Notes: generated by a model from the letters alone, not told the origin. Shown: positions 7,707 to 17,666, numbered from the stretch's first letter. The stretch: 64,000 nt of DNA from an uncultured Candidatus Saccharibacteria bacterium (GCA_964494105.1 CAZBQI010000002.1:18936-82935), one strand, 5' to 3'. Translations and numbers: made by a program.

Positions 7707-8399
7707 TCATGGGCTGTAGCAATAATTTGTGATGCCTTCAGCTAGAATTTCTTCAGAACTTAATACTCTCTTTCCAAGTACCTCGTAATCTAGTGCTAGT
7801 GGCAATTCAGTACAACCCAGAATTATTGCATCTGCTTTTTGGTCAAACATTGAAGACAAAACTTCCACATACTCTTTGCGTGCAGGTATTTCTTTGATGC
7901 CCGCAATGACACTTCTTATGACGATGTCACACGTTTCAATTTGGGCTGCATTTGGCTTTATCAGTTCTATACCGCGTTTTTCAAGAGCACTTTCATAAAT
8001 GCCGGAAGCAAGTAAAACAGGGGTGCCCAGCAGGGCAACTTTTGAATATCCAAGTAGTTTGCATCTTTCTGCAACTAGCTCAACCATCGATAGAAATAGA
8101 ATAGATACTTCTTTTTCTAGGTCTTGTAATAGAATATGTACCGTATTGCTTCCAATACACATTGCTTTGCATCCGGCACGTTCGAGTCCCTTAGCTGCTT
8201 CGATTAGCATTTGTCTCGCTTCTTCTAAATGCTTCTTGCTGGAAATAAAATCAGGCACAGGCACAGAAGCTATCAGCATGTCCGGATAGTCTTCGTTATT
8301 AACTGCACCGTGATTCGTTTGAGCCGAAGTTACTATCTTTTGATATAGAAAGGCCGTTGCTTGAGGGCCGACTCCACCGATTATTCCAATTCTTTTCAT
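7707..8399 (-). CDS. aspartate/glutamate racemase family protein
   Basis: Begins MKRIGIIGGVGPQATAFLYQKIV. Two conserved Cys regions (CIGSNTVH, ILGCTELP). Confidence 0.8.
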   Translation of the reverse strand: MKRIGIIGGVGPQATAFLYQKIVTSAQTNHGAVNNEDYPDMLIASVPVPDFISSKKHLEEARQMLIEAAKGLERAGCKAMCIGSNTVHILLQDLEKEVSILFLSMVELVAERCKLLGYSKVALLGTPVLLASGIYESALEKRGIELIKPNAAQIETCDIVIRSVIAGIKEIPARKEYVEVLSSMFDQKADAIILGCTELPLALDYEVLGKRVLSSEEILAEGITNYCYSP

Positions 8400-8764: not shown

Positions 8765-9280
8765 TTATTTCTTACCCTTAAACTTGTCTGCGTTTGCGGC
8801 TTTTTTGTGCGCAAAACTATCGATAATAATTACAATGGCCATCGCGACCAATAACCAAACCCGGTAATAGTAGAGTTGCAGAGCAATAAACGAACGTTCT
8901 ATTAAATATTGCCGCCATTCATCGGGAATGTAGGCAAGAATGTTTGCAAGTAATGAAAGTGTAACAGTAGATACATATGCTACGAATTTGACAGGATTCA
9001 TCCGCCGCTTATCTGGCGTGTGGTTAATACCAAGAATAATTGTGGGGATTAGTAAAAGTGCGAGCTGCATAAAATTCACAGCATTTAAGCTATTAAACCA
9101 TTCAAACTTTGGAGCCAAAAATTCGTATAAAGGGGTAGCGACCGTTTGTGCTAACACCAAGCCAACAAACTGGCCAAGGCCAATATATTTTACATGGCTA
9201 TTCCAGTGCAAAATCAACGCAACCACGCCCATTGTAGAGAGAGTAATAATTATATCGATACTTATTTCAGGAATGCTCAT
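8765..9280 (-). CDS. polytopic membrane protein, hypothetical
   Basis: 171 aa with about 4-5 TM helices and a lysine-rich C-terminus. Confidence 0.45.
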   Translation of the reverse strand: MSIPEISIDIIITLSTMGVVALILHWNSHVKYIGLGQFVGLVLAQTVATPLYEFLAPKFEWFNSLNAVNFMQLALLLIPTIILGINHTPDKRRMNPVKFVAYVSTVTLSLLANILAYIPDEWRQYLIERSFIALQLYYYRVWLLVAMAIVIIIDSFAHKKAANADKFKGKK

Positions 9281-9331
9281 GTAAATACTTTCGCCTTATC
9301 TATTTGCTTATGTTTTATTATAGTGTAGCTT

Positions 9332-9832
9332 CTACTGAAAGCGTAGCATTGAGCCAATGCGTATCTTGTGTGTATCGATATAACCGGCAGGCAATTCGAC
9401 CACTGAATTTACCGGTATAGAAGAATAGTATACGTTCGGATAAGACGAAGGGCTGATGTTCCTTACCAAACCAACGACTTTTCCGTCTGCAGTAACCCAT
9501 AATACATCTATCGGAAATCTCATATCTTTCATCCAAATGCCACCGGGAGTTTTCTTCTGAAAACTAAGAATAAACGCTTGCCCGTCAGCTAGGCTATTTC
9601 GATCACTTAATCCTTTGGTGCGTTCTTGTTCGTCGTCTGCAATCTGGGCCTGCAGTACCCGACCATCCAACGTTACATTTCTAGTGGGCAGTTGTTGTCT
9701 GCGATCTAGCTTACCAAACAGCTGACTTATGGTTAGTACGGCAAAAAATATAATCGTGCAGGCGACAAACAGCCAAACCTGATTGCGTTTATTAGGCGCC
9801 AATGCGATCTTGTTTTTGCTTGCGTGAGGCAT
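9332..9832 (-). CDS. DUF192 (COG1430) domain protein
   Basis: N-terminal TM, then GLSDRNSLADGQAFILSF...GIWMKDMRFPIDVLWVTADGKVVG, which matches the DUF192 core motif pattern. Confidence 0.6.
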   Translation of the reverse strand: MPHASKNKIALAPNKRNQVWLFVACTIIFFAVLTISQLFGKLDRRQQLPTRNVTLDGRVLQAQIADDEQERTKGLSDRNSLADGQAFILSFQKKTPGGIWMKDMRFPIDVLWVTADGKVVGLVRNISPSSYPNVYYSSIPVNSVVELPAGYIDTHKIRIGSMLRFQ

Positions 9833-10697
9833 TTTGTTCTACATGCTTAATGATCTTACTTGCCACATCTTTGCCAGTAGCTTTCTCGATGCCTTCCAGG
9901 CTAGGGCTAGAATTTACTTCTATCACCAATGGACCACGCTTAGAACGCAGCATATCCACTCCGGCTATATCAAGACCTAATTTCTTTGCCGCCTTTAGTG
10001 CTACCCTCTTTTCGTCATCAGTTAGTACGGCCGATTCGCCCGTACCACCCTGATGTATATTGGCTCTAAAGTCATCATCCAGTCCTTGGCGTTTCATGGC
10101 TGCGATTACACGACCACCAACTACAAATGCTCGAATATCAGCACCACCGGCTTCTTCTATGAATTCTTGAATTAAAATCGGCGCCCCTATGCTAAAGAAC
10201 GCTTGGATCACTGATTTTGCGGCTTTTTTAGTTTCGGCAATAACAACACCCTGGCCATGAGTACTTTTTACCAGTTTTACAATTAGCGGTGCACCACCAA
10301 CTTGCTCTATAAGATCCTCTACATCGCGAGGCTCACTGGCAAACGCGCTTTTCGGTATATCGATATCATCGCGTGCCAATAGTTGCAAGCTTCGGAGCTT
10401 ATCTCGAGAACGTACAATGGCAATCGATTTTGCAGTGGTATATGTATGTCCCATCTCAAACTGACGAACCAATGCACTTCCATAGCTAGTATAGCTGGCA
10501 GCAATTCGCGGAATAATCGCATCGACACCAGATACAACTTGGCCATTATAATGAACTTGTGGTTTGTTTTGCTCGATTTCCATGTAGCACTGCGAATAGT
10601 CCAATACGAGAGCATCATGGCCGGCCTCCTTGGCTGCGTCCCTTAACCGCTGAGTGGAATAGTTGTTTTTTCCTTTTGATAAGATAGCTATTCTCAT
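9792..10697 (-). CDS. rimK: RimK family alpha-L-glutamate ligase (ATP-grasp)
   Basis: MRIAILSK..., ATP-grasp motifs (PLIVKLVKSTHGQGV, ILIQEFI, DIRAFVVGGRV, GLDIAGVDMLRS). 301 aa. Confidence 0.85.
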   Translation of the reverse strand: MRIAILSKGKNNYSTQRLRDAAKEAGHDALVLDYSQCYMEIEQNKPQVHYNGQVVSGVDAIIPRIAASYTSYGSALVRQFEMGHTYTTAKSIAIVRSRDKLRSLQLLARDDIDIPKSAFASEPRDVEDLIEQVGGAPLIVKLVKSTHGQGVVIAETKKAAKSVIQAFFSIGAPILIQEFIEEAGGADIRAFVVGGRVIAAMKRQGLDDDFRANIHQGGTGESAVLTDDEKRVALKAAKKLGLDIAGVDMLRSKRGPLVIEVNSSPSLEGIEKATGKDVASKIIKHVEQNASRKQKQDRIGA

Positions 10698-11134
10698 GTT
10701 TCGTTCTCCCTTCTTGGTTGATGATCCAAATCGATAATAAAATGTTTGCGCAGAAAGTGCCTTCCTAGTAACACCGGATTACGCATTTTCGAGCGATCTG
10801 CCAGAGAAATATGTACCGAATGAATCTCTCCTAGTAATTTTACCTTAGTTTTAATCACAAAGCGCCATTGCAAATGTCCGCTTGAGCTACGAACCTGTAT
10901 GCGTTCAAATTTGCGTTTTATAATCTTTTTACCTTTATAGCCGGCAAATCTTGGTGCCAGCGGTACAAAGTGCAGTTCAAGCAATTCGCCACGCTCAACC
11001 AGCTCTATCGAGTCACAATGAATAGAACAGTGATATGCGCCGGTATCAACTTTTGCCGGAATATTTGCAAGATCAAACTCAAGCAGGTCTATTGGTGCCG
11101 AGCGACCGATAGTTTTTTTCACTTGACTGGACAT
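10694..11134 (-). CDS. retropepsin-like aspartic peptidase (PF05618 putative ATP-dependent zinc protease, RimB-like)
   Basis: 146 aa. DTGA catalytic motif (KVDTGAYHCSIH) and a C-terminal LLGRHFL. Its start and stop both overlap the flanking ATP-grasp genes. Confidence 0.7.
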   Translation of the reverse strand: MSSQVKKTIGRSAPIDLLEFDLANIPAKVDTGAYHCSIHCDSIELVERGELLELHFVPLAPRFAGYKGKKIIKRKFERIQVRSSSGHLQWRFVIKTKVKLLGEIHSVHISLADRSKMRNPVLLGRHFLRKHFIIDLDHQPRRENET

Positions 11135-12054
11135 TATTGTGTTTGCTCCTTTAGTTTATTAACTATTAATTTATGTAGAGCGTCAGTCTTCTCGTCAGTG
11201 CCCACCTTGCTCACAATATCGGGGGCAGCATTCACTTCTAGAATATAGTGTTTACCACTATTTTTATCAATTATTACATCTACACCACTAAACTCGCGCC
11301 GGTGTAGTTTGCCCGCTCTTATTACATCGTTTCTTATTTGTGCCGAAAAATCTTTAGCATCAACAATTTTTCCCTCGGCACCTGCAGAAGTATTGTTAAG
11401 GTGCGTTGAATCATCAAGCCGCGTGCGCTTAATTACCAAAGCGATTTCGCTACCGGCAACCAGAAAACGATAATCACAATCGTTAGCGATATATCCCTGT
11501 AGAACGAAGTCTATTTCTGGTCTGGAATTTACAATTTCTGAAGCGCGCTTAGCATTGTTAGCAAGAAAGTTATTGCTACCACGAGTTCCGTTTATGTCTT
11601 TAACTACCATGGGGAAGCCAAAATTCTTATCGCTATTGATAAATTTGATCATGTGTTTTGGTGTGGAATAATAAGTATTAGGAACGGGGATGCCAGCTAC
11701 TGCTAGCTTCACTAAGTCAGTCAGTTTTGTCATTGAGCGCTTGGAGTGTACTTCACTATCAAAAAACTTATTGCCCTTGTACTTTAAATAAAGTGCAGCT
11801 GCTGTAGCACGCTCATACTGCCGTTGCCACAGTCGAAAGAACACCAAATCGTAATCTGAAATGTCGCGTTTATTGAGGGGATCGTAAATTGTGAGTATAT
11901 TATTTCTGATTAAGAATTCAAGTTCCTTGATAGCGCCCTTATAGGCACGATACCCGTGCGTAGAAGATTTTTTACCTACCTGCTCCATTAAATCGTCGTA
12001 GTTGGGGCGCAGACGGTTTTTGGCATAACTGAATAAAAATAAGACGTCTTTCAT
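11134..12054 (-). CDS. second ATP-grasp domain ligase (RimK/GshB-like paralog)
   Basis: 306 aa. PMVVKDINGTRGSNNFLANN, CDYRFLVAGSEI, and a C-terminal GVDVIIDKNSGKHYILEVNAAP. Diverged from the rimK downstream. Confidence 0.65.
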   Translation of the reverse strand: MKDVLFLFSYAKNRLRPNYDDLMEQVGKKSSTHGYRAYKGAIKELEFLIRNNILTIYDPLNKRDISDYDLVFFRLWQRQYERATAAALYLKYKGNKFFDSEVHSKRSMTKLTDLVKLAVAGIPVPNTYYSTPKHMIKFINSDKNFGFPMVVKDINGTRGSNNFLANNAKRASEIVNSRPEIDFVLQGYIANDCDYRFLVAGSEIALVIKRTRLDDSTHLNNTSAGAEGKIVDAKDFSAQIRNDVIRAGKLHRREFSGVDVIIDKNSGKHYILEVNAAPDIVSKVGTDEKTDALHKLIVNKLKEQTQ

Positions 12055-12135
12055 AGCTCTCCTTGCCGTACATAGTAACAGACAGCTAAGTAATTAAGTT
12101 TACAATACCATATTATTTAACTTATGTCTACTTAG

Positions 12136-13233: not shown

Positions 13234-13839
13234 TTAAACCACCAATGTCTTAAAGTAATCAATAAAGCGCAAAACAATAAGTGCCATGACTAATACATAC
13301 CAACCAATTAGAAAATCCAGGTGATGTTTTTGAACAAATTCGAATAGCTTATTACCTTGTTTTACGTGCAAGTTCTTATGGCGATAATTGTACAAACTGG
13401 TATGTAAAAACAATGCAGACACCACTATCCATGCCAATATACAGTACAAACAAAGTGAACCTAAAACATACAGGCTCTGGCCAATTAGCCACAGCACAAA
13501 CACCATTCCCAGCGTTGTTCCTAGCTGCAAACCTAGCCAGAACCAGCGTTTAAATGTTGCTCCGGCTAGAATGGCTACACCAATTGTAATAAGCACACTA
13601 AAAGCAGCAATACCTATAAGTGGGTTAGGAAAGCCAAAAGCACTGGCTTGATCTGAATTTATAATGGGACCACAACTTAAGATCGGATTGAGGCTACAGC
13701 TTAGCTGATGAGCAGGATCTTTGAGTAAGGCTATTTTCTCGAGCGTAAGCGTGAAGCTGGCAAATAAGCCAAGCGCTCCACCGACAATTAATGTCCACGG
13801 TAATACTTTATCTAGTTTGCTTATCTTGTTTATTATCAT
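13234..13839 (-). CDS. vitamin K epoxide reductase (VKOR) family membrane protein
   Basis: Polytopic. Loop cysteines SCSLNPILSCG and an active-site CxxC in a TM helix (SLCLYCILAW). Confidence 0.7.
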   Translation of the reverse strand: MIINKISKLDKVLPWTLIVGGALGLFASFTLTLEKIALLKDPAHQLSCSLNPILSCGPIINSDQASAFGFPNPLIGIAAFSVLITIGVAILAGATFKRWFWLGLQLGTTLGMVFVLWLIGQSLYVLGSLCLYCILAWIVVSALFLHTSLYNYRHKNLHVKQGNKLFEFVQKHHLDFLIGWYVLVMALIVLRFIDYFKTLVV

Positions 13840-13848
13840 ATTAATATT

Positions 13849-14199
13849 CTAGACTAAATATAGCTTTTCGTTTAAGTTTGGATAGGGTGGCATCGCTCTA
13901 GCCAAAATCATATCTCTAAGCTGGCAATAAAAATTATCTGCCTCATCTGAACTTATTGTATCGTTGTGATTATTCTTAGATGAAACGATCGCGTTAAAGA
14001 ACCATTCACAACTGTACCTGTCATCCGACCGACCATAGCGGTATATGGTAGATGCTAGTTGGGCTAACATTTTTCTATCTGTCAAACTTGGCATCGAAGC
14101 ATTAACAGTATTCCGCCATGCCAAAAAAGCATTATAAATAACAGAGTTTGCTTGGCTCATTTTTTCATTTTTCCTTTTCATTTTTAGAAGTCTGGTCAT
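13849..14199 (-). CDS. hypothetical protein
   Basis: 116 aa ORF with no recognisable motif. The true start may be the internal MSQANSV. Confidence 0.3.
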   Translation of the reverse strand: MTRLLKMKRKNEKMSQANSVIYNAFLAWRNTVNASMPSLTDRKMLAQLASTIYRYGRSDDRYSCEWFFNAIVSSKNNHNDTISSDEADNFYCQLRDMILARAMPPYPNLNEKLYLV

Positions 14200-14443
14200 T
14201 GCTTTTTCTCCTTAGAAGCAAGCCACTTACAGTCCCGCCCGCCAGACCAGCGAGAATAGGTATTACTAACAGAGGAACTATTAACCAAACCCAGCTCAAA
14301 CCTATAAATGTTATAAAAACTGCAGTAAGAAGCGCACTCCAATTTAATAGTTTATTGAGGACATCCTTTCGGTTATCAAATATGGCCATTACGGCCAGTT
14401 GACCTAGCCATAGAAATGTAAAAAATACTAAGTTTGATACCAT
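14165..14443 (-). CDS. small membrane protein, hypothetical
   Basis: 92 aa with three hydrophobic helices, immediately downstream of dnaK. Confidence 0.35.
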   Translation of the reverse strand: MVSNLVFFTFLWLGQLAVMAIFDNRKDVLNKLLNWSALLTAVFITFIGLSWVWLIVPLLVIPILAGLAGGTVSGLLLRRKSNDQTSKNEKEK

Positions 14444-16373: not shown

Positions 16374-16865
16374 TTATTTCTCCTTCTTTACTTTAACTAT
16401 TGAATGTCTTATTACTCTATTTCCTAGTTTGTAGCCTGCTTGTAACTCTTCGGCTACAATTTCTTCGCCCGCTGACGAATCGCCTTCACCATCTTCGTAG
16501 CCAACTGCCTCATGTAGCTCTGGGTCAAACGACTCGCCAACAGCATTAATCTTACTTAAACCAAGCTCTGCCAAGATGCCATCTACCTGCTTAGCAACTT
16601 GTTCTACTCCATTGGCCCAATCGTTATCTTTCAAATCCTCTGGGCGGTGATGTAAGGCACGTTCGATATTATCGATAAGTGGCAAGATATGCAGAATTAC
16701 CGTTTCTTTGGCCATTTCCATAATGCCAGATTTTTCTTCGTCACTGCGACGCTTAAAATTCACAAAATCGGCATGGACCCGCTGTAAATCGGCAGTAAGT
16801 TCGCCAACTTGGTTTTCTAGTCTATCTAGCTTCTTTTCGGTTTTTGCTGGTTTGTCTTTAGGCAT
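16374..16865 (-). CDS. grpE: nucleotide exchange factor GrpE
   Basis: Coiled-coil N-terminus ([27 protein letters not shown]), GrpE C-terminal domain, 163 aa, in operon with dnaK. Confidence 0.9.
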
Positions 16866-17577
16866 TTAGAACCTCCTCTAATCTACTACCTACGTGCTCA
16901 ACTAAGTTCATTACTTTCGGGTAGCTTTGGCGGGTTGGGCCAACTACGCCGACATAGCTGTAGTCACTATACGGTGAGGCAAAGCGGGAAATTATTAACG
17001 CACAACCACTAGCCTTACCCATTGGGTTTTCGTTACCAATGTAAACATTGACGCGTCCACTTGGGCTTATTTCGCGCAACCACGGCTCTAGGTTATCGAG
17101 TAAACTCGCTACTTCTTGAATTCGGCGCTGATTCTCGAATTCAGGCTGGGCGAATAAATGTGCCAGCCCACTCATATATAAGCTGTTGCCAATTGTGCCT
17201 ACCGCCAAATTATTGGTAACTTCTACCAGGGTATCTACCGCTGATTTGACAGCTTGTGCCGGTTCGCCCGCGGCGTCAATTCGACTATCTATAGCTCTTG
17301 ATTGGCGTGAAGCTTTTACCGCCTGTAATTTGGCACGCGTTTCTTGCTTGATGTGATCGACATACCAGCGATAACCTTTATCTGTAGGAATTCTCCCGGC
17401 ACTAGTGTGCGGCTGCCCAATAAAACCAAAATGCTCAAGCGTAGCCATCTCGGCTCGAATTGTTGCCGGCGAATAATCAAATTCTTGACTCAAGCCAAGC
17501 GAACCAACCGGATTGGCCGTCTGCACATAGCTATCAACTATAGCGTGTAGTATTTCTGCTTGGCGTGGAGACATCAT
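16858..17577 (-). CDS. hrcA: heat-inducible transcriptional repressor HrcA (short form)
   Basis: N-terminal wHTH (RQAEILHAIVDSYVQTANPVGS). 239 aa, which is shorter than typical HrcA. A CIRCE element lies upstream. Confidence 0.8.
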   Translation of the reverse strand: MMSPRQAEILHAIVDSYVQTANPVGSLGLSQEFDYSPATIRAEMATLEHFGFIGQPHTSAGRIPTDKGYRWYVDHIKQETRAKLQAVKASRQSRAIDSRIDAAGEPAQAVKSAVDTLVEVTNNLAVGTIGNSLYMSGLAHLFAQPEFENQRRIQEVASLLDNLEPWLREISPSGRVNVYIGNENPMGKASGCALIISRFASPYSDYSYVGVVGPTRQSYPKVMNLVEHVGSRLEEVLNA

Positions 17578-17639: not shown

Positions 17640-17666
17640 TTAGCACTCTCGTGTCAAGAGTGCTAA
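17640..17666. promoter_or_regulatory. CIRCE operator (TTAGCACTC-N9-GAGTGCTAA), HrcA binding site
   Basis: Perfect consensus inverted repeat read directly. It lies 63 bp upstream of the hrcA start, in the divergent region shared with the ABC transporter. Confidence 0.85.

Follow-up and report, generated by a model that had tools for sequence, protein, structure and literature searches.

Organization of the locus

A 64,000-nucleotide (nt) stretch of DNA from an uncultured Candidatus Saccharibacteria bacterium, here called the window, contains a cassette of three tightly coupled genes that is followed by a DUF192 gene. The first gene encodes an ATP-grasp ligase of 306 amino acids, which we named GRASP2, the second a retropepsin-like peptidase of 146 residues from family PF05618, and the third a canonical RimK of 301 residues (Table 1). 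The locus is best read as an operon of RimK, a RimB-like protease, and an additional RimK-related ligase, that is, as a variant of the known Rim system.

Base 11134 is common to the stop codon of GRASP2 and the start codon of the peptidase gene (TA[A]TG, 1-nt overlap). The peptidase gene and rimK overlap by 4 nt in an ATGA sequence at positions 10697..10694, and the ATG of the DUF192 gene at position 9832 is located 41 nt within the 3' end of rimK. Shine-Dalgarno-like AAGGAG or GGGAG sequences precede the start codons of GRASP2, the peptidase gene, and rimK. The GC content of the cassette is approximately 0.42–0.43, the same as that of the remainder of the window. The list of open reading frames (ORFs) and the sequence confirm the three coupled genes with 1-nt and 4-nt overlaps and the DUF192 start ahead of the rimK stop, all of which were described in the original prediction, and its assignments of an ATP-grasp protein, a PF05618 peptidase with a DTGA motif, and a canonical RimK agree with the Pfam and NCBIfam matches. 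A search of the literature on RimK or ATP-grasp proteins in Saccharibacteria, Patescibacteria, and TM7 found the cassette discussed nowhere and returned only unannotated rows of a supplementary table (PMC10633639).

RimK and the retropepsin-like peptidase

The window RimK scores above the equivalog cutoff of NF007764 (366.4 bits against 331) and is composed of Rimk_N (PF18030, 124 bits) and PF08443 (217 bits) domains. Its residues 1–291 can be aligned without gaps to RimK of Pseudomonas aeruginosa (PDB: 7qyr) with an E-value of 5e-103. Residues Arg64, Arg96, Arg98, Lys100, Arg102, Arg189, Arg203, Arg211, Asn213, His215, Asp248, Glu260, and Asn262 are invariant in an alignment of 20 Saccharibacterial RimKs, including that from the window, and position 8 is occupied by lysine, not arginine. 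Structures and molecular dynamics simulations assigned the arginine "belt" and catalytic residues of RimK to the binding of poly-glutamate and glutamate (PMC10092738, PMC10375531), and all belt arginines defined in the literature are retained in the window protein. The mean net charge of Saccharibacterial RimK domains is +13.6. Judging from these residues and scores, it is very likely that the window RimK is a ribosomal protein S6--L-glutamate ligase or poly-alpha-L-glutamate synthetase, and, jointly, that the peptidase is RimB-like.

The peptidase contains the motif KVDTGAY, in which Asp30 is the counterpart of the catalytic Asp31 of RimB (PMC11957791), and LLGRHFL, the retropepsin-type C-terminal hhGR motif. 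Of 70 related peptidase domains, 68 contain a D[TS]G[AS] motif. The structure predicted by AlphaFold2, with a predicted local distance difference test (pLDDT) score of 93.1, is most similar in Foldseek to RloA2 (PDB: 9g59; template modelling score 0.76–0.79), followed by RloA, a Legionella protein (PDB: 2pma), and then HIV-1 protease. The N-terminus of the peptidase, MSSQVKKTIGRS, has neither a hydrophobic leader nor a signal peptide. Its best NCBIfam model is RimB (NF052261, 49.4 bits against a cutoff of 200), and RloA3 is next (44.8 bits). The net charge of +10 is compatible with acidic substrates. The gene is located directly upstream of rimK and overlaps it by ATGA, an arrangement like that of rimB in Pseudomonas. 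From its motifs, fold, and gene position, the protein is predicted to be a cytoplasmic RimB-like aspartic endopeptidase of the retropepsin type. RimB cleaves poly-glutamate tails on RpsF, requires approximately five contiguous glutamates, and stimulates the synthesis of poly-alpha-glutamate by RimK (PMC11957791). The window peptidase is presumably a homodimer like RimB, and would most likely trim acidic tails and modulate the ligases.

GRASP2 is a distinct family of the RimK/LysX clade

GRASP2 scores below the cutoffs of the RimK-family model TIGR00768 (86 bits against 143), the S6 ligase model NF007764 (49.8 against 331, with no Rimk_N match in Pfam), and the models of LysX (58 against 276), MptN (51 against 350), D-Ala-D-Ala ligases (18–24 against approximately 245), and GSH-S_ATP (19.1 against 23); the GshB models are not among its NCBIfam matches. 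These scores rule out that GRASP2 is a standard glutathione synthetase, D-Ala-D-Ala ligase, or LysX, and the profile classification that the original prediction called for shows the protein to be related to RimK. For annotation, the 306-residue protein should not be named RimK, GshB, or Ddl. The AlphaFold2 model of GRASP2 (pLDDT 92.7, predicted template modelling score 0.90) has the three-domain ATP-grasp fold, and its top Foldseek matches are RimKs from Escherichia coli and Pseudomonas (PDB: 5zct, 5zk6, and 4iwx), followed by ArgX and LysX. The graspetide ligases PsnB and PruB are matched with E-values of approximately 1e-13 to 1e-14, below RimK, ArgX, and LysX. Similarly, the profile of the GRASP2 family finds RimK (E-value 2e-21) and LysX (1e-15) among PDB sequences, and hhalign aligns it to the Saccharibacterial RimK profile from residue 1 to the C-terminus with a probability of 99.75. 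The window GRASP2 and the adjoining RimK are 27% identical across 180 residues. As judged from sequence comparisons, GRASP2 is a distinct family within the RimK/LysX clade that is almost confined to Saccharibacteria.

A homologue search identified approximately 130 close relatives of GRASP2. A source is named for a few of them, which are described as "ATP-grasp domain-containing protein", and nearly all of these are labelled Saccharibacteria or Saccharimonadales; two are labelled Nomurabacteria. The family motif H[LV]NNTS[AQ]G[AG] was used to scan one genome per GTDB species, and 196 genomes were positive; 80 loci from these were kept and listed, and the neighbourhood counts given below are based on them. 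Nearly all of the 80 loci are from Saccharibacteria, and the few labelled Nomurabacteria, Verrucomicrobiia, and the like may be mis-binned. A hidden Markov model search of 1.84 billion representative sequences found 830 GRASP2 proteins with E-values of at most 1e-30, which corresponds to approximately 830 clusters at 50% identity.

Residues Lys110, Lys152, Asp194, Arg196, Arg210, Asn221, Asp259, Glu273, and Asn275 are essentially invariant in 128 GRASP2 domains. Lys152 belongs to the ATP-binding site, Asp259, Glu273, and Asn275 are ligands of magnesium, and Arg196 is the equivalent of RimK Arg189, which contacts the C-terminal carboxylate. Because the ATP- and magnesium-binding residues are invariant, GRASP2 is predicted to be active. 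The loop FRSNxHxGG of RimK is replaced in GRASP2 by HLNNTSxG, in which Leu219 and Ser223 take the places of Arg211 and His215, and both substitutions are essentially invariant. Furthermore, Asn162 and Asn191 stand for a valine and a glutamate of RimK. The positions of RimK Arg98 and Arg102 are occupied by Met108 and Thr112 in the window GRASP2 and are never basic across the family; among the belt and substrate positions of the window protein, only the equivalents of Arg64 and Arg96 are basic (Arg74 and Arg106). GRASP2 domains have an average net charge of approximately -1.5, and the window copy, with +11, is unusually basic. Since GRASP2 retains the ATP and magnesium site, Arg196, and Arg74, but few belt residues, it would most likely add an acidic residue to the C-terminal carboxylate of an acceptor other than that used by RimK. 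What distinguishes it from the growing poly-glutamate chain of RimK would be the identity of the acceptor, the stage at which the tail is extended, or the linkage.

Position 74 distinguishes groups within the family. The subclusters were obtained by average linkage on p-distances, and are clusters rather than branches of a rooted phylogeny. Lysine or arginine is found at this position in every subcluster of GRASP2 domains that are adjacent or fused to a peptidase, including that of the window, and glutamate in 31 of 35 domains of the subcluster termed "first-position", from loci with three ligases. Molecular dynamics assigns the gamma-carboxylate of the incoming glutamate to the corresponding Arg64 site of RimK. 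The charge reversal therefore suggests, from the alignment, that GRASP2 paralogues accept different amino acids.

Gene order and gene fusions in related genomes

The loci were compared by phmmer, with the window proteins as queries against the ORFs of the 80 loci. The conserved order is dnaK-dnaJ-GRASP2-peptidase-rimK(-DUF192). RimK is encoded downstream of GRASP2 in 73 of 74 loci, dnaJ is located upstream in 62 of the 65 loci with enough sequence, 69 of 80 loci encode a PF05618 domain, and comEC follows further downstream in 30. The 1-nt and 4-nt overlaps recur in several relatives (L030, L059, and L069). The recurrence of the order and overlaps over 80 related loci shows that the genes are not juxtaposed by chance, and the fixed site between dnaJ and comEC identifies the cassette as a vertically inherited feature of the core genome, not an island. 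The neighbourhood comparison suggested in the original prediction thus found the arrangement to be strongly conserved. The second ATP-grasp ligase, which had been called unusual, is so in comparison with E. coli and Pseudomonas, but it is the rule in Saccharibacteria that carry GRASP2.

At least two GRASP2 copies together with RimK are encoded in 46 of the 80 loci. The architecture GRASP2, GRASP2–peptidase fusion, and RimK is found in 34 loci, and that of the window, with separate GRASP2, peptidase, and RimK, in 18; the remaining loci have peptidase–GRASP2 or peptidase–RimK fusions (the latter in 4 of 80) or two GRASP2 genes. In most relatives, one copy of GRASP2 is fused to the peptidase. We collected 59 fused proteins, in which the peptidase is C-terminal in 42 and N-terminal in 17; at least five GRASP2 subclusters contain such proteins. 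That GRASP2 and the peptidase have been joined repeatedly and independently, in either order, strongly supports a joint action of the two. The data show a specific partnership of GRASP2 and the peptidase that adjoins an otherwise canonical RimB–RimK pair, in which GRASP2 would be a second, fast-evolving ligase of the RimK/LysX clade working with the peptidase. The identity across loci is 65% for RimK, 34% for GRASP2, and 22% between GRASP2 and the RimK family.

Many Saccharibacteria, despite their tiny genomes, encode two to four RimK-clade ligases and at least one peptidase at the fixed site behind dnaK-dnaJ, which implies a function that is worth its cost. Six loci are without the retropepsin (L040, L041, L045, L062, L064, and L074). 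MATCAP/DUF1704-like (QEGLA) proteins are encoded between the ligase genes in five of the six, and none is listed for L074. These proteins contain an HExxxH motif, match PF08014 with 28.8 bits against a cutoff of 27, and have a weak match to TIGR02421. The swap of the peptidase type beside the same ligases fits a write-and-erase cycle on C-terminal residues. The two GRASP2 genes of L074 are separated by an uncharacterised gap.

In the cultivated Southlakia epibionticum ML1 (SEML1_0777-0784), dnaJ is followed by genes for a DUF2339 protein, a PF05618 peptidase, RimK, two hypothetical proteins, tRNA-Lys, and comEC (PMC10633639). This genome has one PF08443 protein and is without GRASP2 and DUF192; its peptidase was mis-named "RimK/LysX family protein", and both the peptidase and RimK were scored non-essential by transposon sequencing (PMC10633639). 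The DUF192 protein of the window has an N-terminal transmembrane segment. Its gene is a looser associate of the cassette, since only 37 of 69 loci have it directly after RimK, often with an overlap, and Southlakia is without it. A literature search for DUF192 found nothing useful.

Availability of S6 as a probable substrate

The rpsF gene was not found in the window by tblastn with E. coli S6 as the query. The S6 tails were surveyed instead through homologues of S6 from the related locus L020, in which rpsF-ssb precedes the cassette by only approximately 3 kb and encodes an S6 that ends with ...SKKAKEE. Among the 21 closest homologues of the lineage, 16 end with -EE and 19 with a glutamate. 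Since S6 proteins with -EE ends are present in the lineage, the canonical acceptor of RimK is available. RimK would most likely add alpha-linked glutamates to the C-terminal -EE of S6, or make free poly-alpha-glutamate. The S6 homologue P0137 and the GRASP2 homologue P0027 agree in their sources and in the length of their longest contig, and are therefore probably encoded on one contig.

Comparison with known systems

The cassette resembles the (rimA)-rimB-rimK operon of Pseudomonas (PMC4741518, PMC7343187, PMC11957791) in that the peptidase gene directly precedes a canonical rimK and overlaps it, the DTG aspartate is at the same site (Asp30 in the window protein and Asp31 in RimB), and S6 of the lineage ends with -EE. 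It differs in the absence of the EAL protein RimA, the additional GRASP2, the diverged peptidase, the DUF192 gene after rimK, and its location behind the heat-shock genes dnaK-dnaJ of a Patescibacterium with a reduced genome. RimBK hybrids, such as DP2392 of Desulfotalea psychrophila (PMC11957791), have the peptidase–ligase order that is matched by the peptidase–GRASP2 and peptidase–RimK fusions of relatives. However, the window genes are separate, the prevalent fusion of relatives is reversed, with the ligase N-terminal and the peptidase C-terminal, the fused ligase is usually of the GRASP2 type, and a separate canonical RimK adjoins in most loci. The RloA-RloB-RloC system of Pseudomonas pairs a retropepsin with a cytoplasmic ATP-grasp protein that is related to RimK (approximately 24% identical; PMC12239564), and RloA2 and RloA are the solved structures nearest to the window peptidase. 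Unlike in the Rlo system, of which RloA is secreted, the window peptidase has no signal peptide, the cassette does not encode an RloB-like inactive transglutaminase with seven transmembrane segments, and GRASP2 has no match to the RloC-type model TIGR02291.

The carrier ligases LysX and ArgX, which act on LysW, belong to the same ATP-grasp clade and are the second-best sequence and fold matches to GRASP2. In their reaction, an amino acid is joined to a carboxylate at the acidic C-terminal end of a protein, and they presumably share with GRASP2 the lack of an equivalent of RimK Arg211. Near GRASP2, however, there are no LysW-like carrier or lysine and arginine biosynthesis genes, and a peptidase and RimK adjoin the ligase. 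The eukaryotic tail cycle of tubulin, in which TTL and TTLL ligases are opposed by MATCAP and CCP carboxypeptidases, is comparable by analogy only: it also pairs ATP-grasp writers with erasers of C-terminal residues, and some of the related Saccharibacterial loci have MATCAP (PF08014)-like proteins beside the ligases. In contrast to that cycle, the bacterial ligases are of the RimK clade with marginal TTL matches, the MATCAP-like genes are outside the window, and the substrate is not tubulin.

Proposed function and alternative explanations

With confidence and doubt in about equal measure, we propose that the cassette is the Saccharibacterial form of a Rim module, in which acidic C-terminal tails are written and erased, with one ligase more than in the characterised RimB–RimK pair of Pseudomonas. 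Likewise evenly balanced is the case that GRASP2 is a second ligase for tails and acts on a C-terminal carboxylate, as its conserved residues suggest. The pathway of two-step ligation plus processing put forward in the original prediction is a reasonable hypothesis. Several observations weigh against the tail-writing module. The rpsF gene is absent from the window. The peptidase is far below the RimB equivalog cutoff, and RloA3 scores nearly as high. GRASP2 domains are near neutral on average, and the glutamate at position 74 in a large subcluster means that not all members of the family can use an acidic donor. GRASP2 has Leu219 in place of an arginine, RimK Arg211, that we take to be catalytically important in glutathione synthetase and that LysX presumably also lacks, and the chemistry of GRASP2 could therefore differ. 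Because Southlakia has the peptidase and RimK but no GRASP2, the latter is an accessory component. Furthermore, the RimBK hybrid of Desulfotalea is an active protease that did not glutamylate RpsF in vitro (PMC11957791), so that S6 is not necessarily the substrate of a ligase linked to a peptidase.

GRASP2 could instead be a redundant paralogue of RimK for the poly-alpha-glutamylation of S6, in which case the operon would be a usual rimB-rimK locus whose ligase has been duplicated. The best match of GRASP2 in both sequence and fold is RimK, and the window copy is basic and keeps Arg74, Arg106, and Arg196 at the positions of RimK Arg64, Arg96, and Arg189. However, an identity of approximately 22%, the distinct invariant loop signatures, and the never-basic equivalents of Arg98 and Arg102 separate the two families. 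The retention of both genes in 73 of 74 loci at such different levels of identity (65% and 34%) indicates distinct functions, which makes redundancy quite unlikely. It is also unlikely, though slightly less so, that the module makes and recycles a free poly-amino acid or oligopeptide, such as an osmolyte, a storage compound, or a cell-surface polymer, with GRASP2 and RimK as polymerases and the retropepsin as a depolymerase. The membrane-anchored DUF192 protein, encoded by a gene translationally coupled to rimK, might then handle an exported product. RimK does make free poly-alpha-glutamate, the synthesis of which is stimulated by RimB (PMC11957791), and in Pseudomonas, RloC pairs with retropepsins, and loss of the ligase suppresses the defects of protease mutants (PMC12239564). 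Nevertheless, the lack of a signal peptide, of an RloB-like protein or exporter, and of a TIGR02291 match in GRASP2 argues against a free polymer, as do the approximately half of loci without DUF192 and the canonical -EE acceptor on S6 of the lineage.

The RimK family includes ligases of small molecules, and GRASP2 could be one that attaches an amino acid to a peptidoglycan precursor or to a cofactor tail, like MptN and CofF, with a synteny that is inherited but functionally uncoupled. The score of GRASP2 with the MptN model, the MurL-like epimerase that adjoins it in seven related loci, and the racemase 0.9 kb downstream in the window are in line with this proposal. It is nonetheless very doubtful, given that repeated independent fusions in both orders and conserved stop/start overlaps point to direct functional coupling of GRASP2 with the peptidase, that the racemase has no counterpart in the 80 loci, and that six of the seven MurL-like genes are encoded on the other strand. 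Least probable by far is a graspetide-like system for a ribosomally synthesized and post-translationally modified peptide, or another secondary-metabolite system, in which the ATP-grasp protein would cyclise or otherwise modify a ribosomal precursor peptide and the protease cut its leader. It could account for the Foldseek matches to PsnB and PruB, but these rank below RimK, ArgX, and LysX, the module is vertically inherited rather than an island, and the overlaps of the cassette genes leave no room for a precursor-peptide gene. A PADLOC scan of all four cassette proteins gave no match, and hence no support for a defence system.

A broader form of the tail-writing proposal, which we consider rather unlikely, is that GRASP2 and the retropepsin-like or MATCAP-like peptidases constitute a bacterial "C-terminal tail code", in which paralogues add different residues to S6 or another protein. 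If it were true, mixed non-templated tails under heat-shock control would be a prokaryotic analogue of tubulin tyrosination and glutamylation in ultra-small Patescibacteria. RimK and RimB are the one well-studied example in bacteria of enzymes that dynamically add a peptide tail to a ribosomal protein and remove it, and whether RimK- and RimB-like enzymes have further targets is a question that has been raised (PMC11957791). The unnamed, lineage-specific GRASP2 family, tied to a protease by fusions, offers a concrete set of enzymes for alternative substrates and specificities. Southlakia, which is genetically tractable and has the RimB–RimK core without GRASP2, makes work in vivo conceivable.

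Heat-shock context and neighbouring genes

A minus-strand run of hrcA, grpE, dnaK, three small or membrane-protein ORFs, and dnaJ continues into the cassette. A perfect, palindromic CIRCE (controlling inverted repeat of chaperone expression) element, TTAGCACTC-N9-GAGTGCTAA (TTAGCACTCTCGTGTCAAGAGTGCTAA), is located just upstream of hrcA, with 0 mismatches and a chance expectation of 0.03. The spacer between dnaJ and GRASP2 contains the weak promoter-like match TAGACA-17-TATTGT and no terminator-like hairpin, and the counts from a promoter and terminator scan of the 8.7–17.5 kb region do not differ from those in shuffled sequences. Co-expression of the module with the hrcA-grpE-dnaK-dnaJ operon, controlled by CIRCE and HrcA, is plausible.

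Table 1. Positions of the cassette, its neighbours, and additional genes in related loci. Locations without a locus prefix refer to the window.
Feature	Location	Strand	Evidence or context
GRASP2, 306-aa ATP-grasp ligase	12054..11134	minus	ORF list; PF08443, 66.8 bits
PF05618 retropepsin-like peptidase, 146 aa	11134..10694	minus	ORF list; PF05618, 61.8 bits
rimK, canonical, 301 aa	10697..9792	minus	NF007764, 366.4 bits; Rimk_N and RimK domains
DUF192 (COG1430) gene, 166 aa	9832..9332	minus	PF02643, 84.8 bits
Spacer from dnaJ stop to GRASP2 start, 81 nt	12055..12135	minus	AAGGAG ribosome-binding site; one weak -35/-10-like match
TAGACA-17-TATTGT	12130..12102		dnaJ-GRASP2 spacer
hrcA	17577..16858	minus	downstream of CIRCE
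CIRCE element	17640-17666		upstream of hrcA
VKOR-family membrane protein	13234-13839	minus	between dnaK and dnaJ; weak NCBIfam matches, CxxC-type motifs
Two small ORFs	13849-14199, 14165-14443	minus	between dnaK and dnaJ
Amino-acid racemase	7707-8399	minus	TIGR00035, 140 bits, cutoff 93; CuyB-like; 0.9 kb downstream of cassette
171-aa multi-pass membrane protein	8765-9280	minus	no family match; 52 nt after DUF192
rpsF of a related locus	L020:1500-1835		
MATCAP/DUF1704-like putative metallocarboxypeptidase pairs	L040:6927-8460; L041:6909-9546; L045:6826-9346; L062:1046-3605		between two GRASP2 genes
MATCAP/DUF1704-like pairs, further loci, likewise between two GRASP2 genes	L064:6825-8225 and 9114-10418; L035:2161-3618; L063:3190-4719		
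MurL-like protein	L035:4553-5878		between dnaJ and GRASP2
Diverged ATP-grasp-like ORFs	L020:3986-5056; L002:4964-5998; L010:4940-5992; L017:1339-2385; L027:2563-4890; others		directly upstream of GRASP2
Unmatched family, ~330-365 aa	e.g. L030:4669-5766		11 loci
Unmatched family, ~310 aa	e.g. L033:6768-7691(-)	opposite	10 loci
Unmatched family, ~600 aa	e.g. L005:2316-4073		6 loci; HExxH

Homologues of the VKOR-family protein are encoded at the equal position in six related loci. The racemase was considered as a link of GRASP2 to D-amino-acid or cell-wall chemistry, by comparison with the Aslfm/Racfm pair, and rejected: none of the 80 loci encodes a counterpart, which places the racemase outside the module. 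The closest relative, L001, is the only locus in which a clear homologue of the multi-pass membrane protein encoded after DUF192 occupies the corresponding position.

Additional genes in related loci

A MurL-like protein is encoded between dnaJ and GRASP2 in L035 and has homologues in L040, L041, L045, L064, L075, and L078. It matches the model of UDP-MurNAc-L-Ala-L-Glu epimerase (NF041275) with 145 bits against a cutoff of 700, and may represent nearby chemistry of terminal-glutamate epimerisation or simply a cell-wall gene. Very diverged ATP-grasp-like ORFs of approximately 350 residues, with no or marginal Pfam matches, are located directly upstream of GRASP2 in related loci, as is one ORF for a double ATP-grasp protein of 775 residues. 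With these ORFs, some Saccharibacteria have four or more ligase genes at this site. Three more conserved families, without Pfam or NCBIfam matches, are encoded in or beside the cassette of relatives (Table 1).

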